From the IMG/VR virus record IMGVR_UViG_2531839662_000010, positions 1 through 5,460 of that record: a stretch of DNA of 5,460 nucleotides; one strand, written 5' to 3'. Positions 1 to 5,460 of the stretch are shown one piece after another. The DNA comes from a virus (taxonomy: Duplodnaviria; Heunggongvirae; Uroviricota; Caudoviricetes). The number at the start of each line of letters is the position of its first letter. Position 1 is the stretch's first letter. Position numbers and translations under genes: made by a program. Below the pieces are notes generated by a model. The model saw only the letters and a program-made list of their open reading frames with translations, did no database searches and was not told the DNA's origin.

Positions 1-600
1 TCTTTACCACTTTCTGTGTTGATTGGTTATGAAAAGAACGCTCGCACACACTCCGTGGAGCAGGTAGATCAGATTGTTGCCAGCATACAGGAGTACGGAT
101 GGACTAATCCGATCCTGATAGACGAGAACAACGTTGTAATTGCTGGTCATGGTCGAATTGCTGCGGCCACTCAGTTGGGGATGGATGACGTTCCCTGCAT
201 TGTTCTGGAAGGGCTAACGGAGAATCAGAAGAAGGCATATCGTCTGGCCGACAACCGTATTCCGCTGAATGCTGGTTGGGATGAAGAGTTGTTAAGCGCG
301 GAACTTGCAGATCTTGCGGCCGATGATTTTGCTCTGGACTCAATTGGTTTTACTCAGCGCGAACTGGATAACTTATTGAGTGCGGCGGTCTACGATGACA
401 CAGAGGGTATGGATATCCCATTTGAGAAGGATGAGGCCAAATCAGGCGTAAAAGTTCAGTACCTGTCATTTGGAGGTCATAAAATCCCGGCAACGGATGA
501 GGAAGCGGATCGTTTTGACTGCGCGGTGTCTCGTTATGTTGATGATAATGGCAGCTATATCGGATTTGTATCCGCATTGCTGGCTGGGGAGGTGTGCTGA
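1..600 (+). CDS. ParB/Srx-fold (ParB N-terminal domain) nuclease-like protein, 5'-partial; frame is open to window start, true start probably just upstream
   Basis: ORF 16..600 has no stop upstream in frame and no SD before GTG16/TTG19. Translation shows ParB-N hallmarks: NARTHS near the N-terminus, GHGR box (nt 145-156), then LADNRIPLNAGWDEELLSAELADL, a pattern typical of phage ParB-like nuclease proteins. Stop TGA 598-600. Confidence 0.75.
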   Translation, partial: SLPLSVLIGYEKNARTHSVEQVDQIVASIQEYGWTNPILIDENNVVIAGHGRIAAATQLGMDDVPCIVLEGLTENQKKAYRLADNRIPLNAGWDEELLSAELADLAADDFALDSIGFTQRELDNLLSAAVYDDTEGMDIPFEKDEAKSGVKVQYLSFGGHKIPATDEEADRFDCAVSRYVDDNGSYIGFVSALLAGEVC

Positions 601-1973
601 TGCTTCACCTGAATTACGACATAACGCACCTACGCGGCGCGGAATATAACCCGCGTTTTATCGGTGAGGATGATCTTGCGAGGCTGGCGGAAAGCGTCAG
701 GGAGCTGGGGCTTGTGAAGCCATTGATAGTGCGCGGCGATTTGCTGGTGGCGGGACACCAAAGGACGAAGGCGCTACGTAAGTTGGGAATAACGCGTGCT
801 GCGGTGTATGTGTTGCCCTGTGAAACGACGGTATACGACGAAGTACGGTTTAACCAACTGCATAACGGAACGGATTTTGATAGCGGAGATGAGCGTTGCA
901 GGGTGTCCGGTCTGGAAGATAAGCATGGTTTTGTTCAGGTATCGGCAAGCCAGATCTCAGGCAATATGCGCGCGAAAATGGCATATGTTCGAAAGAACAT
1001 AGCGGAACTGGTTATCAAGTATGGTCCGTGGGGTGGTTGTGTTGCTACTCAGTCTGGTGAGGTTATTCATTGTGCTCAGTATGCATTAGCAGCGAAGATG
1101 ACGCGCACACCGCTAACGGTGTTTGTGATCCCTGATGTTGAGAAGGAAAAATACCAAAGTTATCTGAATAAAACTTATGGTGTATTTGAGTATTCTCATC
1201 TGGAGAAAACAACATACATCCAGACGTATGCGCAGCTTATGCGGTTGCGTAATGGTGGCAGCCTGAAATCAAATCTGTATGAGTCGTTGATCCTCCCGAT
1301 CATTGCCAAGACGCCAAGAGGAATTGATTTTGGTTCGGGGCAGGGAGACTACGCGCGAATGCTCAGGGCAAAGGGATATAACCTGCATGATCTCGAGCTT
1401 TTCCGCCGTAAGGGCGCTGGAAACACTCTGGATAGGACCGCAACAAACCGGATGATTGATACGCTGGTGGATGACTTAAAAACGCGAGGGCGTTACGACT
1501 ACGTGATTTGCGATAGCGTTTTGAACTCGGTCGATAGTGTCGAGGCTGAATGGTCCGTTCTGACGGTTCTGAAAGGCCTGTGTAAAGCTGGTGGGTCAAT
1601 ATTCTTTTCTGGTCGTAGCCGTGGAGAGCTGGAAACAGTCCTGAAGCAAACACAGGCGGCGAGTTCCAAAAGCCGGCTTTATTTTATTGATCATAACGGT
1701 TTTACCGCGTTGTACCGGAAGGGGCACTGGTTTTACCAGAAGTTTCACTCTGATGAGGAAGTGAAGCAGTTGTGTCGTGTACATGGTTTCAGGATTAAGC
1801 GGTCAATATTCAACTGTAAGAGCTGGTATTTGCACGTCATTAACGATGATTCCCTTAGTTGGGCGAGTCTGGAGAAAGCTGTTCGTTTTGAGTTTGAGTT
1901 GCCGTTGCCTGGTGGTTCAACAATCGGACGATCTGATGATGTGCTGGCGGCTTTCCGGCCGTTGATTAAGTAG
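600..1973 (+). CDS. Fusion protein: N-terminal ParB/Srx-like domain + C-terminal Class I SAM-dependent methyltransferase-like domain
   Basis: ATG at 600 overlaps the upstream TGA (TGATG) with GGAGG at 588-592; the track's GTG 594 has no usable SD spacing. N-terminus YNPRF...VAGHQRTKALRKLG is ParB-like. C-terminal half has Rossmann MTase motif I IDFGSGQGD (nt 1323-1349), motif II YDYVICDSVLN (nt 1494-1526) and motif III-like LKGLCKAGGSIFF. No (D/N/S)PP(Y/F/W) motif seen. Confidence 0.7.
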   Translation: MLHLNYDITHLRGAEYNPRFIGEDDLARLAESVRELGLVKPLIVRGDLLVAGHQRTKALRKLGITRAAVYVLPCETTVYDEVRFNQLHNGTDFDSGDERCRVSGLEDKHGFVQVSASQISGNMRAKMAYVRKNIAELVIKYGPWGGCVATQSGEVIHCAQYALAAKMTRTPLTVFVIPDVEKEKYQSYLNKTYGVFEYSHLEKTTYIQTYAQLMRLRNGGSLKSNLYESLILPIIAKTPRGIDFGSGQGDYARMLRAKGYNLHDLELFRRKGAGNTLDRTATNRMIDTLVDDLKTRGRYDYVICDSVLNSVDSVEAEWSVLTVLKGLCKAGGSIFFSGRSRGELETVLKQTQAASSKSRLYFIDHNGFTALYRKGHWFYQKFHSDEEVKQLCRVHGFRIKRSIFNCKSWYLHVINDDSLSWASLEKAVRFEFELPLPGGSTIGRSDDVLAAFRPLIK

Positions 1974-1989
1974 TCTGTAGGAGGCGCTG

Positions 1990-2328
1990 GTGGCTGACAG
2001 AATTGAGATAAAGATGGATTTTTCTTCTCAGGATATTCAACGACAACTCCAGCGCCTTGAAGAACGCGAATTGCCGTTCGCAATGGCGCTTGCGGCAACC
2101 AGAACGGCAAAGGCTTCTCAGGCTGCGATTAAGAATGAAATTAATCGGGTATTTGACAGGCCCACGCCGTGGATTCAGAACTCTACTTACGTTTTGGCCG
2201 CAAAGAAGAGTGATCCTACAGCCATTGTGTATGCTCGTGAATGGGGAGGAACGCCAGCCCCTGTAACGTTGACTCCGCAAATCGAAGGTGGCCAACGACA
2301 GTACAAACGCTCAGAAGGTGCGTTGTAA
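1990..2328 (+). CDS. Hypothetical protein (112 aa), third gene of the ParB operon; weak, unverified resemblance to small phage morphogenesis proteins
   Basis: GTG start at 1990 preceded by AGGAGG (1979-1984, 5-nt spacer), 16 nt after the upstream stop. Helical Ala/Gln/Arg-rich N-terminus. Stop TAA 2326-2328 sits inside the left arm of a perfect hairpin. Confidence 0.5.
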   Translation: MADRIEIKMDFSSQDIQRQLQRLEERELPFAMALAATRTAKASQAAIKNEINRVFDRPTPWIQNSTYVLAAKKSDPTAIVYAREWGGTPAPVTLTPQIEGGQRQYKRSEGAL

Positions 2329-2380
2329 AACCCACTGAATTCAATGTTTTCCCTTTGTTTTCAGTGGGTTTTGTTATTGG
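2327..2380. terminator. Putative bidirectional intrinsic terminator: perfect 13-bp inverted repeat with 20-nt loop
   Basis: AAAACCCACTGAA (2327-2339) and its exact reverse complement TTCAGTGGGTTTT (2360-2372), followed by T-rich GTTATT. On the opposite strand the stem is also followed by a U-run. Lies between convergent genes. Confidence 0.45.
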
Positions 2381-2411
2381 TGGGGGTTACTGATTACCCT
2401 ATAAAACCCAC

Positions 2412-3403
2412 TTATGTGGATGAAATGTGGATGCCTCCTTTTAACGGATTAAGTGAAATTGCATCCTGGAGGAAATCAGGAGCGAGGTGTGCATAGGTCA
2501 TAGTTTGCTGGATCGTGGCGTGCCCCATAATTCGCTGGAGCGTAAGTATATTTCCTCCATTAATCATAAAGTGAGCTGCAAAGGTATGGCGTAGAACATG
2601 TACTGCCTGCCCTTTTGGTAGATCAGGCTTAACACTGCGAAGCACCTTGCGATATTCCTCATAATTGACGTCAAACAGAAGGCCGGATTTCTTTGTTTTG
2701 ATCTCGCTAACAACTTCATCAGAGACAGGAATAATTCGAACTTTTCCGTTTTTAGTTTTGTTAAACGTCACGCGGTTATTGATGATGTGTTCCGCGCGCA
2801 GATTTTTCGCTTCTCCCCATCTCGCACCAGTACTGAGACAAAGTAGCGTAATCCGCCGGGCATCACCGCTTACTGCATCCAGTAATTTGGCAATTTCTTC
2901 CGTGGTGAGATACGTCATTTCGGGTGATTTTCGTTTCAAAGAGGGGAGGGCGCGGAGCGGATTTTCTCCGTGAAATTCCCCGGCATTTGCCAGGAGTGTA
3001 AACATTCCTCCGAGATCCGACTCATCACGCCGAACAGTAGACTCTTTTACTCCCAAAGATTAAACGGGAGCTTCGATTAAGCGGCCATGAAACGAGCATT
3101 AATCTGGCTAACCCTTGGATCATTCATTTCTTTGATGATTTTTTTCAACCTGGTTAGAACGCCGTTAGCATATGGCTTATTGCGTCCACCCAATTCCCAC
3201 CATAACGGAAGCAGATCTGAGAGATGACGTTGCTCTGTTGGCTTTTCAAGCCATTCCTTATCGTGCATGTGGCTGAGAACATAACGCTCAAAGGCCACTG
3301 CATCTGCCTTTTTCTTAAAAATCCGCTGAATCCGACGTCCACTTCGGCCACGCGGTCTAACATCCACTTTATACCGTCCACCATCGAGTGCTTTAATTGC
3401 CAT
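2412..3403 (-). pseudogene. int: P2-type tyrosine integrase, apparently inactivated (N- and C-terminal halves in different frames, separated by stop codons)
   Basis: N-terminal part (ORF 3077..3436; probable start ATG 3401-3403 with GGAGGG SD, giving MAIKALDGGRYKVD) resembles the P2 Int N-terminus. C-terminal part (2412..3056, starting at a TTG) carries the catalytic motifs ARWGEA, HVLRHTFA and the tyrosine in MTYAHL. Frame 1 stops at 3077-3079 and frame 2 has a stop at 3060-3062; no single indel joins them. Confidence 0.6.
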
Positions 3404-3469
3404 TGGCAAGCCCTCCGGTGAAACGAGGAAAGACATTTCCAGTTTGTAAAACGTAAGAATAATAAAGGG

Positions 3470-3772
3470 TTAACCAATTTTCCTTTCGGATGGGGGTAAA
3501 TCCGTTGGTTCTTGCCCATAGTGTGCGAGAGCCGGAGCTATCTGCCCGGATTCAGGCGCAATTTTTCCAGTCATAAACCACAACGCATATTTCTCAAATC
3601 TGGGGTTGTTTAGTATTTGCTCAATTACTTCAGCATTAGGGATAGTTTTACCGCTTTCATATCTCCACAGAGCATCACGGTTTAAACCAAGCATTTTTGC
3701 TGTATCCGGGAGGCTAGTAAGTCTCTCGCTTTCACGCATGATTTTTATGCGCTCTCCAATAGTCATACGCAT
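3470..3772 (-). CDS. C: P2 C-type immunity repressor
   Basis: About 100 aa from ATG 3770-3772 with GGAG SD (the track starts at a TTG 15 nt further upstream). Contains WFMTGKIAPESGQIAPALAHYGQ, which closely matches the C-terminal half of phage P2 repressor C as recalled. Sits upstream of int on the same strand and divergent from cox. Confidence 0.8.
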   Translation of the reverse strand: MRMTIGERIKIMRESERLTSLPDTAKMLGLNRDALWRYESGKTIPNAEVIEQILNNPRFEKYALWFMTGKIAPESGQIAPALAHYGQEPTDLPPSERKIG

Positions 3773-3867
3773 GTTGCAATTCTCCAACGTCTGTATTAAT
3801 GTTTATACAAATGAGTTTGATTTGGGGCATCCGTCGCAAGAAATACCCCAAACAGGGAGATTATCAC
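3773..3867. promoter_or_regulatory. Divergent promoter/operator region of the immunity switch (Pc leftward, Pe rightward)
   Basis: 95-bp AT-rich spacer between divergent C and cox starts. Contains a 7-bp inverted repeat TTTGGGG (3821-3827) / CCCCAAA (3846-3852) and TATTAAT / TTTATAC -10-like hexamers. Exact -35/-10 boxes could not be assigned by eye. Confidence 0.45.
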
Positions 3868-4194
3868 ATGAATGAAGAACTATTGAGGGCATTGTTTAAG
3901 ATCCCAGACCCCATCACCGTTGATGAGTTTTCCCGCCGCACAGGTAAGACCGAATCAGCCGTAAGAAAGTTGGTAGAGCGTCGACTCATCCCTCTAACTA
4001 CTGAGCGCGAGGTTTTAGGCGAGGAAGGGAGTTCGCGCCGTCTTCTCATCCTTTGGAATGAGTGGCTCGAAATGGTCTATGACGCAACGAGACAGCTTCC
4101 TCCTGAGCGTAAAGATTGGCGCAACCACTGGCTTAAGAAAGCCAAGAAGCTGGCGGAAGATTTGGGATTAGGCTTTCTTAATTTTGCTGCATGA
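3868..4194 (+). CDS. cox: Cox-like excisionase/transcriptional regulator (108 aa)
   Basis: ATG 3868 with GGAG SD (3855-3858). First gene rightward of the repressor, divergent from it. GKTESAVRKLVERRLIPL resembles the P2 Cox DNA-binding region as recalled. The track's upstream start at 3799 would overlap the operator region and was not used. Confidence 0.6.
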   Translation: MNEELLRALFKIPDPITVDEFSRRTGKTESAVRKLVERRLIPLTTEREVLGEEGSSRRLLILWNEWLEMVYDATRQLPPERKDWRNHWLKKAKKLAEDLGLGFLNFAA

Positions 4195-4212
4195 GATGCA
4201 GGGAGTTTTGAT

Positions 4213-4554
4213 ATGAAACAGCAACGTAATTCACGCTTTCGTAATGGTGCTGAACGCCACGCTAACCGTTTCGCTACCAGTGCATCACGCAGCAACATCC
4301 GCTACAGCCTGAGCGAAACACACGCAACGCCGGATGGCTACCCAGTAAAACAAATCGGCGAGCACGCCTGGTTGATTGAGAAAGCTGGAATCGTGGTCCA
4401 CAAATGCCCACACAATCCGTTTACCGGAAACCGCATTTTTGCACTAAGCAGCGGCGACAATCAGTTCGGACAGGATTTCACATTGTACGAAGCACTTCGT
4501 ACAGTTGATCGTCTGCTTCGCGGACAAAGTTTTATTAAACAGGCTGATTTATAA
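4213..4554 (+). CDS. Hypothetical early-operon protein (113 aa) with strongly basic N-terminus
   Basis: ATG 4213 with GGGAG SD (4200-4204), 18 nt after the cox stop. N-terminal 30 residues are Arg/Asn/Ser-rich. Function not recognised. Confidence 0.5.
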   Translation: MKQQRNSRFRNGAERHANRFATSASRSNIRYSLSETHATPDGYPVKQIGEHAWLIEKAGIVVHKCPHNPFTGNRIFALSSGDNQFGQDFTLYEALRTVDRLLRGQSFIKQADL

Positions 4555-4564
4555 CAGGTGCTTT

Positions 4565-4843
4565 ATGACCAAAGAGCATGCACAAGGTGTATTTATCCGT
4601 TTTATTGATTTTCGCGGTGAACTGTTATTACGCGCATCGGCTATTGATGCTGTAGTTCCGGCAGAAAAAGATGTGGCCACTTACCTTTATCTGAACGGCA
4701 CGCGATTGTTTGTGGAACTTCCGTACCAGACCGTACGCGAAATCATTAACGAAGCTGAAAAGGCACGTCAGGTTAATGGCGATGAACCATATATCGAAAT
4801 TATCTGCATGGATTCAGAAGCTGAAATTCAGAAAGCAGATTAA
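4565..4843 (+). CDS. Hypothetical early-operon protein (92 aa)
   Basis: ATG 4565 is 10 nt after the previous stop, with AGGTG upstream. The track's longer version from 4505 would overlap the preceding gene by 50 nt, so the downstream start is preferred. Acidic C-terminus. Confidence 0.5.
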   Translation: MTKEHAQGVFIRFIDFRGELLLRASAIDAVVPAEKDVATYLYLNGTRLFVELPYQTVREIINEAEKARQVNGDEPYIEIICMDSEAEIQKAD

Positions 4844-4854
4844 AGGGCGTTGCG

Positions 4855-5097
4855 ATGGGCAAAGAATATAAAACTCTCATTAACAAAGCACTTGAGCGTT
4901 TTTATTTTCGCTTAAGTGCATCAGGCGTTCATGCTGAACGTGCAGCCCGTGACTCATTGACCAGGGCAATCCGGAGTCTGTATGACGTGGCTTTTTACGC
5001 TGATGATCTGGATGCACTTAACGAACTTTCCGAGCTGATCTGTGCCGCAGAATGCGGGGAACATATTGAACCGTATAAGCTGGGGAATATCGCATGA
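4855..5097 (+). CDS. Hypothetical early-operon protein (80 aa)
   Basis: ATG 4855 is 11 nt after the previous stop, with AAGGG upstream. Predicted helical. Function not recognised. Confidence 0.45.
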   Translation: MGKEYKTLINKALERFYFRLSASGVHAERAARDSLTRAIRSLYDVAFYADDLDALNELSELICAAECGEHIEPYKLGNIA

Positions 5098-5207
5098 GTA
5101 TATTTATCTCATGGCTTGTTCTGATTATTTCGGTGGCCTGTGCCATTGGGATTATGCGAATTATTAATTCAGTAAAAAAGATTGAACGCTTTTTTACTGG
5201 TGAATAA
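5094..5207 (+). CDS. Small hydrophobic peptide (37 aa) with one predicted transmembrane helix; not in the supplied ORF track
   Basis: ATG 5094 overlaps the upstream TGA as ATGA. Translation MSIFISWLVLIISVACAIGIMRIINSVKKIERFFTGE: a roughly 19-residue hydrophobic core followed by a basic tail. Stop TAA 5205-5207. Confidence 0.35.
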   Translation: MSIFISWLVLIISVACAIGIMRIINSVKKIERFFTGE

Positions 5208-5300
5208 CGATACAAATAAAACATCAAATTAAATAAGAAAACGTGAAAACCATCCGTATTAACGGAGGTATTCGCACACGCAAATAACGGAGATACAAAA

Positions 5301-5460
5301 ATGCACGCAAAAGAAGAAGGTATCATCAGAGCACTGAAAGAAATTTCAAAGATGGAAAGCGAAGTAGCGAAAAAAGCCGTGGCCAATGCTCACATGGACG
5401 TCGCAATCCACACAATGATAGCCGCAAAAGTCACGGCAGAAGCTGCCAAAATCATCGAAG
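5301..5460 (+). CDS. Hypothetical protein, 3'-partial (runs off window end), Ala/Lys-rich helical N-terminus
   Basis: ATG 5301 with GGAGA SD (5289-5293, 7-nt spacer) after a 93-bp AT-rich spacer. Open to the window end: MHAKEEGIIRALKEISKMESEVAKKAVANAHMDVAIHTMIAAKVTAEAAKIIE. Confidence 0.5.
   Translation, partial: MHAKEEGIIRALKEISKMESEVAKKAVANAHMDVAIHTMIAAKVTAEAAKIIE

Follow-up and report, generated by a model that had tools for sequence, protein, structure and literature searches.

A stretch of 5,460 nucleotides from a tailed-phage record (IMG/VR IMGVR_UViG_2531839662_000010, positions 1 to 5,460; the whole stretch is called the window below) joins two unrelated mobile elements, and an 87-bp segment next to the join, positions 2326-2412, hosts a repeated motif beside an integrase gene (int). 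In this work, we show that the left attachment site (attL) of a P2-like prophage lies here, and that the segment is its P' arm, on the integrase side. The prophage is integrated in a plasmid-borne phage, where it cuts a gene of the PHROG class 'minor tail protein'. We also propose, at a probability of roughly 0.55, that accessory DNA-bending proteins bind the motif copies in the arm as well as two degenerate copies at 2381-2390 and 2393-2401. The main candidate among such proteins would be the Cox-like protein of the prophage, with integration host factor (IHF) possible at the middle copy.

The window makes up contig AFAB02000066.1 of assembly GCA_000194535.2 in full. The join itself is readily seen. 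Yersinia phage vB_YpM_41 matches bases 1-2322 at 99.4% identity, and a P2-like prophage with int, a C-type repressor, a Cox-like gene, DUF4761 and DUF4754 matches bases 2305-5460 at 97%, so that the two identities overlap at 2305-2322. In E. coli the vB_YpM_41-type element lies on 46-50-kb plasmids in 72 of 73 places, e.g. pATCC25922_1 (~48 kb), where holin and endolysin genes are present. Because its E. coli copies are almost all plasmid-borne and such genes accompany it, we regard this element as a phage-plasmid. The open reading frame (ORF) at 1990-2328 (+ strand) is the 5' part of one of its genes, a match to phrog_1924 'minor tail protein' (E 1.4e-97), with 112 codons where the full gene has 239. 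The last two codons and the stop are provided by prophage DNA. The target gene is uncut (720 bp) in both vB_YpM_41 and pATCC25922_1. The identical 112-aa product was found among 21 contigs examined, and the junction was present in four of the nine that were checked. An independent assembly (L010) is identical base for base over 2200-2520 and has an intact integrase gene, therefore the junction is not an assembly chimera.

The exchange took place directly to the left of the repeats. A hybrid core at 2299-2325 derives its left part from the target gene and its right part (TGCGTTG) from the phage. Within it the crossover block GAAGG, at 2314-2318, is where the identity to the phage-plasmid stops and the identity to the prophage starts. 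The target reads CAGTACAAACGCTCA-GAAGG-GGCGCTA and the attL of the window reads ...ACGCTCA-GAAGG-TGCGTTG-TAAAACCC. As GAAGG is the only block that attP and this target have in common, the insertion in the window is at a degenerate secondary site.

The primary site is evident when attL and attR are set beside the empty site. A complete lysogen, NZ_CP148314, has the prophage between raiA and pheL, and the 27-bp core ACAAAAAACGCGCCCGAAGG(T/C)GCGTTG is found at both prophage ends and once in the empty K-12 site. The core copies differ by the one base given as T/C, which places the crossover to the left of it. The integrase/arm module is carried by ~125 of 5,426 complete E. coli genomes, and its site in both genomes examined is the raiA/RaiZ terminator beside pheL. 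Here the 27-bp core of the primary attB coincides with the intrinsic terminator hairpin that is common to raiA and the 3'-derived small RNA RaiZ. On integration the attR side (raiA) regains the wild-type hairpin and T run, and the hairpin behind int, towards pheL, is left with one A-C mismatch. A search of the openly searchable literature turned up no description of this att site, or of any P2-like att site at raiA/pheA or raiA-pheL.

A further insertion provides both junctions at another secondary location. The 129-kb plasmid pCREC455-3 (NZ_CP183151.1) holds a second complete copy of the P2-like phage, which splits a tail-fibre gene. Its attL reads ...CAGCTCCA-AGAAGG-TGCGTTGTAAAACCC and its attR ...AACGCGCCC-GAAGG-AGCATTGACTC, and both junctions cross in GAAGG. 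Separate insertions at three different sites (the window, raiA-pheL and pCREC455-3) have thus all crossed in the same five bases. The chromosome of the pCREC455-3 strain has another copy at raiA-pheL, with an identical integrase protein and a different C repressor. P2 uses secondary sites when its primary site is occupied, and the same appears to hold for the phage in the window; a double lysogen of this kind is the pattern expected if a heteroimmune phage meets an occupied preferred site. The attR of the insertion in the window is predicted to read ...TTTACAAAAAACGCGCCCGAAGGGGCGCTAAGGGCTGG. Searches of viral contigs for the exact junction and predicted attR patterns gave no match, and when a C-terminal piece of the tail protein, as expected at attR, was looked for, only split or variant genes of relatives turned up, no attR.

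The integrase gene (2412-3403, - strand) encodes a P2-type tyrosine integrase, with matches to Pfam Phage_integrase and Int_N and ~55% identity to P2-group integrases. Its arm-type sites P'1 and P'2 are two copies of ATGTGGATG at 2414-2433 (+ strand), 11 bp apart and within the last int codons, in the context ATGTGGATGaaATGTGGATG. The underlying motif, TGTGGAYR, is present on each arm as a tandem pair with 11-bp spacing, the attR pair being GATGTGGACAgttTGTGGATG. An IHF-like AAACAATTTGTTA is found in attR ~30 bp beyond GATGTGGACAgttTGTGGATG and five bases from the core; the P2 equivalents are GATGTGGTCAatgTGTGGACG and TTTCAATTTATTG. At the place of P'1/P'2, P2 has TGTGGACActgTGTGGACA, annotated 'Int P' arm', and an alignment of 25 relatives shows P'1/P'2 nearly unchanged in each (15 or more of 18 positions). 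The site therefore has what distinguishes the attL of a P2-type heterobivalent tyrosine integrase: it adjoins int, its core is duplicated and arm-type repeats lie on both arms. The duplication is seen at the primary site and in pCREC455-3, the insertion in the window itself being represented by attL and the intact target. Between the hybrid core and the arm-type sites, the 87-bp segment is a P' arm spacer that is 100% identical in L010 and in E. coli attL.

The initial annotation had named the segment as the likely prophage boundary, and the junction, core and arm-type sites confirm that it belongs to the attL of the prophage whose int it adjoins. That account has to be revised on the place of the boundary and core, which are not in the repeated 11-mers but directly to the left of them. 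It had also considered the 11-mer as an integrase-binding repeat; we tried it as an arm-type site and rejected it, since the arm-type motif is clearly TGTGGAYR, whose pair at 2414-2433 had gone unnoticed in that account. A second core copy at the far end of the prophage and an empty site had been suggested as checks, and both exist, at raiA-pheL in NZ_CP148314 and K-12. Absence of the 11-mer from the other prophage end had been named as part of what would refute the proposal, and the 11-mer is indeed absent there. This does not refute an attachment site, because only the core is duplicated and the arms need not repeat.

We turn now to the repeats. TAAAACCCACT is exact on the + strand at 2326-2336 and 2402-2412, and the 10-mer AAAACCCACT is exact on the - strand at 2363-2372, where an extension to the 11-mer (2363-2373) has one mismatch (C for T). 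The three copies that had been reported are therefore real, the two direct ones as given and the inverted one off by one base, having been placed at 2362-2372. Three occurrences of AAAACCCACT in 87 bp, two direct and one inverted, compare with 0.09 expected, and none of 200 dinucleotide shuffles gives three. It was also correctly reported that the outer copies overlap stop codons: the first includes the TAA (2326-2328) of the ORF at 1990-2328, and the last shares a single base, T2412, with the stop codon of int (2412-2414). A search of the rest of the element, likewise suggested at the outset, shows that in a complete 36.8-kb prophage copy the 10-mer (at most one mismatch) clusters nowhere but in the array, with one extra one-mismatch match within int.

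Copy 1, AAAACCCACTGAA at 2327-2339 (+ strand), and copy 2, AAAACCCACTGAA at 2361-2373 (- strand), are the two arms of a perfect 13-bp inverted repeat, which extends to 18-nt arms at 89%. Copy 1 is the core-proximal arm, whose counterpart in relatives is the right-hand stem partner; copy 2 sits at the position of the conserved IHF-like site of relatives, YAANNNNTTGATW, with 3 mismatches here. Copy 3, AAAACCCACT at 2403-2412 (+ strand), adjoins P'1 and aligns with a conserved AATGGTGAAT block. There are two degenerate copies as well. The first, GTAACCCCCA at 2381-2390 (- strand), is the ACCCCA block that is conserved across relatives. The second, ATTACCCTA at 2393-2401 (+ strand), corresponds to a conserved GGTTAAC block of relatives; it precedes copy 3 by 10 bp, and the two make a direct repeat spaced by one helical turn. 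The P' arm thus holds five boxes of type WWACCC in two orientations, with 10-bp spacing in one pair only. The G run at 2382-2386, a C run on the int strand, varies between strains: five C in the window, eight in L041 and L098 and nine in L099. This shifts the distance from the arm-type sites to the core by at most 4 bp, and the long variants also have A to G in copy 2.

A candidate binder of these boxes is encoded nearby. The gene at 3868-4194 (+ strand) is a Cox-like excisionase/repressor, with a match to phrog_272 and to Pfam Phage_Cox (E 1.8e-5, under the gathering score), and the best PDB match of its product is P2 Cox, 4LHF (E 1.7e-4, almost full length). The arm resembles a Cox- or Apl-type binding region in that an interval of ~70 bp (here 87 bp) separates the core from the int-side arm sites and a Cox homologue is encoded. 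We favour Cox because of the position of the boxes, their number, their two orientations, the one-turn pair at 2393/2403 and the related boxes at the switch between C and cox. The recombination directionality factor (RDF) would bind the WWACCC-type boxes in both orientations, like P2 Cox in the equivalent interval, and host IHF may bind the middle copy, where relatives have an IHF-consensus site. Such accessory proteins would shape the excisive and integrative complexes. By bending the ~100 bp that separate the core from the arm-type sites they would allow one integrase to bridge both, and this would favour excision and hinder re-integration. The hairpin formed by copies 1 and 2 would be a by-product of inverted boxes and not a terminator. 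That the segment is a protein-binding array, rather than a terminator only, was an early suggestion; judged from the sequence it is most likely right, and a terminator scan of 2000-3000 found no terminator-like sites.

The boxes at the switch deserve some description. The gene for the C-type immunity repressor, a helix-turn-helix protein, lies at 3470-3772 (- strand). Between it and cox, beside the cox start, is the palindrome TTTGGGG-N18-CCCCAAA (3821-3852), whose boxes resemble the WWACCC boxes of the P' arm. It is a candidate Cox operator, or else a candidate stem in early transcripts. All relatives with the Cox type of the window have a GGGGYAWW...WWRCCCC palindrome beside the cox start, whatever their C type, and the C-proximal half of the switch varies with the C type. 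The switch palindrome has mirrored changes of its own, e.g. GGGGCATTA / TAATGCCCC in L081.

Several observations weigh against Cox as the binder. Apart from the 2393/2403 pair, the box spacings are not regular multiples of one helical turn. The exact 10-mer is absent from the C-cox switch region, and a comparison of this region with the P' arm found no shared 8-mers and no exact or near-exact motif; the link between arm box (AAAACCCA) and switch box (ATACCCCA) is a short consensus defined post hoc. Among phage records this Cox type is found only in uncharacterised Klebsiella phages. As for IHF at the middle copy, the site in the window is poor, with 3 mismatches to the WATCAANNNNTTR consensus at the family register (relatives have 0-2). 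Of 16 lineages, 4-5 have the inverted repeat weakly or not at all, and the same is true of several P2-type phages. Finally, two relatives, L105 and L080, have Cox proteins that are ~90% identical (by eye), yet their stems differ by mirrored changes. Selection for complementarity accounts for this better than independent protein half-sites do.

To see how the arm evolves we collected ~30 non-identical P' arms whose integrases are 58-70% identical to that of the window, from genomes, viral contigs and metagenomes, and added Klebsiella phage 3LV2017, which has depositor-annotated att sites. A single-protein scan of representative genomes gave five relatives only; the usable set came from an alignment query of viral and metagenome contigs, and most of the viral contigs in it are trimmed at the int stop. 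These arms align nearly gap-free, with the same length and block order. Reading in the int sense, the two arm-type sites are followed by a conserved block (AATGGTGAATAGCGGTTAACGCTGACACCCCA in most lineages) and then, at one fixed register ~65-77 nt after the first arm-type site, by an element that matches YAANNNNTTGATW with 0-2 mismatches and usually has an inverted partner. The core comes last, and is a host terminator hairpin that differs by lineage. The copies in the window map onto this plan: copy 3 is the start of the conserved block, copy 2 the IHF-like element and copy 1 its inverted partner. ACCCC is ~10-fold commoner in these P' arms than in upstream DNA.

The fixed element raises the question of whether the inverted repeat is a pair of sites for IHF, or for some other host bending protein, instead of Cox. 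Copy 2 would then be an H'-like site and copy 1 a weaker inverted partner. Every relative fits the consensus at the one register while the four N positions vary freely, and chance agreement at a fixed position is 0.4% for at most two mismatches and 0.04% for at most one. A T-rich tract lies 5' of the site, and the annotated IHF site of P2 has an IHF-like counterpart at the same place in the P arm. The window lineage is the worst of all at this register, though; in most lineages the partner arm is without the TTR part of the consensus, and the P2 P' arm has no annotated IHF site. Copy 3 and the ACCCCA block would be left unexplained. We therefore consider IHF in place of Cox an improbable account of the repeat.

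Another possibility is that copies 1 and 2 act as a nucleic-acid structure. At its 3' end the C-int transcript would fold into a stem-loop, which would stop or stabilise it together with the terminator-like core just downstream. At the primary site, where int transcription runs towards pheL, this would insulate the pheL-pheA operon, and copy 3 could pair with copy 2 as an alternative, the two being complementary at 100% over 10 nt. The fold of the region is strong on both strands (z ~ -3 for a 145-nt stretch and ~ -6.5 for the core-proximal half), and the inverted repeat is significantly stable on both strands in 11 of 16 lineages. Stems are kept while loops vary freely, and stem sequences differ between lineages by mirrored changes: AAAACCCACTGAA / TTCAGTGGGTTTT, ACCCCATGAT / ATCATGGGGT and CCCTTGATAG / TTATCAAGGG. 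The three central stem pairs are changed on both sides, and 76% of cells are paired vs 34-44% in slid-register controls, a count that used a hand-shifted register (the window lineage moved by one column) and is biased towards pairing. RNAalifold gave no consensus pairs on the MAFFT alignment, owing to a one-column displacement of the window lineage. Natural variants (the L041 type and L104) yield G-U pairs in the int-sense RNA, whereas the L107 variant gives C-A in the sense strand and stability is without strand bias. The same stems are also constant in part: TGA/TCA is invariant and the flanking CC/GG nearly so, and such invariance of TGA/TCA and CCC/GGG suggests that sequence is recognised.

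As a classical terminator the inverted repeat is unlikely. It does not conform to an intrinsic terminator, with a G+C-rich stem, a short loop and a T run right after the stem. The loop is 20 nt, and four T/U belong to the stem, after which come ACAAC on the - strand or GTTATT on the + strand. Relatives have no T run after the stem, and a terminator hairpin followed by a T run is already present in the core. An Rfam search returned a chance match alone, far under threshold, and a search of the window for tRNA and tmRNA genes found none. On balance, a structural role for the repeat is possible but rather unlikely, and accessory protein sites bound mainly by Cox are the explanation we prefer.

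Could the copies instead be extra core-type integrase sites, or the relic of a former core or terminator with little present function? AAAACCCAC agrees with the core half-site of the phage, ACAACGCAC, at 7 of 9 positions, and the family cores are AAAACCCC...GGGGTTTT terminators to which the arm boxes are similar. A likeness of this sort, i.e. an A-tract with a C run, is expected of any terminator-like sequence, and the spacer between the arms of the repeat is 20 nt, as against 4-7 nt in a core. Blocks are moreover conserved at specific positions across lineages with different cores, which argues for a present function. We would be surprised if a pseudo-core or relic proved to be the answer.

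Some neighbouring features complete the description of the window. The integrase gene is disrupted here by two single-A insertions (~3061 and ~3078) that are 17 nt apart; each changes TTATC to TTAATC and creates a TAA. At the same junction in L010 the gene is intact and encodes 329 aa, and the breaks in the window reflect genuine inactivation or else a sequencing error of the 2011 draft.

The gene upstream of the array had been assigned to a ParB operon of the same prophage. This did not hold up, as it is the phage-plasmid tail gene cut by the insertion. At 16-1973 there are two neighbouring genes, each with a ParB N-terminal (ParB/Srx) domain; the second (457-459 aa) is fused to Methyltransf_23. 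A third ParB/Srx gene lies on the plasmid 3' of the tail gene. These genes look more like phage DNA-modification or nuclease genes than like a partition operon.

Two contigs from other samples (L015 and L018) end at 2343, which is 2313, the last target-specific base, plus 30. If we assume that their assembler used k=31, these ends are the signature of a k=31 repeat boundary, which suggests that the arm occurs in two contexts in those genomes too. Five contigs from various samples and assemblers (L012, L013, L014, L017 and L019) have the uncut target gene, yet their ends all fall in a 3-nt interval (equivalent to 2325-2327). This is 7-9 nt to the right of the crossover, and a k-mer repeat boundary of the P2-like arm is no explanation for it.

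What do these results mean? The boundary of the prophage is now fixed within 5 bp, and its true core and integrase arm-type sites are identified. The result is a map, open to experimental test, of a P2-type recombination module that is uncharacterised, recurs across E. coli, targets the terminator shared by raiA and RaiZ and rebuilds a terminator on integration. One phage is found at degenerate secondary sites in the tail genes of two different plasmid-borne phages, and such insertions bear on prophage-prophage interference and on the routes by which prophages reach plasmids. Our understanding of site-specific recombination is unchanged. The att site is an ordinary one though uncharacterised, and stands out chiefly because its prophage lies in a tail gene of a 48-kb phage-plasmid. 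Of more interest than the repeats first noted are three side findings: that tail genes of phage-plasmids receive insertions, that one strain is a double lysogen, and that an inverted repeat with an IHF-like site recurs across the family. All three nevertheless extend known P2 biology.

Two bolder ideas can be put forward, and we think it doubtful that either one is correct. The inverted repeat beside the core may be a structural element per se, an extruded DNA hairpin or an RNA stem of the int transcript, that the whole P2-type integrase lineage needs. This would be a component not described for the P2 attP. Alternatively, P2-like phages whose chromosomal site is occupied may regularly insert in the tail genes of resident phage-plasmids, of which there are two independent cases here. 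If so, plasmid virion genes would be disabled and the prophage would gain plasmid-borne mobility.

The best-known system to compare is P2 itself. In the annotation of P2 attP (NC_001895) the core is at 24356-24383, the Cox region at 24399-24472 (74 bp) and the Int P' arm at 24470-24496, with the int stop inside. P2 and the phage in the window share the order of elements, i.e. an arm-type pair, an IHF site, the core, an accessory region of ~75-90 bp and an arm-type pair over the int stop. They also share direct TGTGGAYR pairs with 11-bp spacing on both arms, and the presence of C and cox beside int. The Cox-bound interval of P2, like the array in the window, holds an inverted repeat (18 nt, 83%), TAGGGGCTTTCAACGGTA / TACCACTGAAAGCCCTTA, which is cox-box-like. 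P2 Cox protects at least 70 nt of attP, where at least six degenerate 9-bp boxes face both ways, 10-11 bp apart (PMC3936717). The differences are in the details. The core and host site are the raiA/RaiZ terminator, whereas P2 uses locI. The Cox protein is only distantly related to P2 Cox (E ~1e-4), and the boxes in the window are not TTAAA(G/C)NC(A/C). The family of the window has an IHF-consensus element in the P' arm, unlike P2.

A closer relative is 3LV2017 (Reginaelenavirus), where attL and attR were annotated by the depositors. This is the closest phage record for cox (68.5%), and the regulatory module (int, C and cox) of the window lineage is closest to it; for int the closest among phage records (~64%) is in Klebsiella Kp48xx phages with the same Cox match. 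The P' arm of 3LV2017 follows the same plan, a CCCCATGA..TCATGGGG inverted repeat, GGGGTA, GTTAACC, ATTCACC and then GTGGATGGAATGTGGATG. It differs in its core (AAACCCGGAGCACTCCGGGTT) and host, in mirrored changes of the stem and in ACCCCA boxes that take the place of AAAACCCAC.

Finally, coliphage 186 Apl and lambda Xis/IHF are similar arrangements, in which the core is separated from the arm-type integrase sites by sites for a small RDF and for IHF, and the RDF also acts at the lysis-lysogeny switch (PMC7498355). The RDF sites of 186 and lambda are regular one-turn direct repeats, whereas in the window two of the three exact copies are inverted, 36 bp apart.

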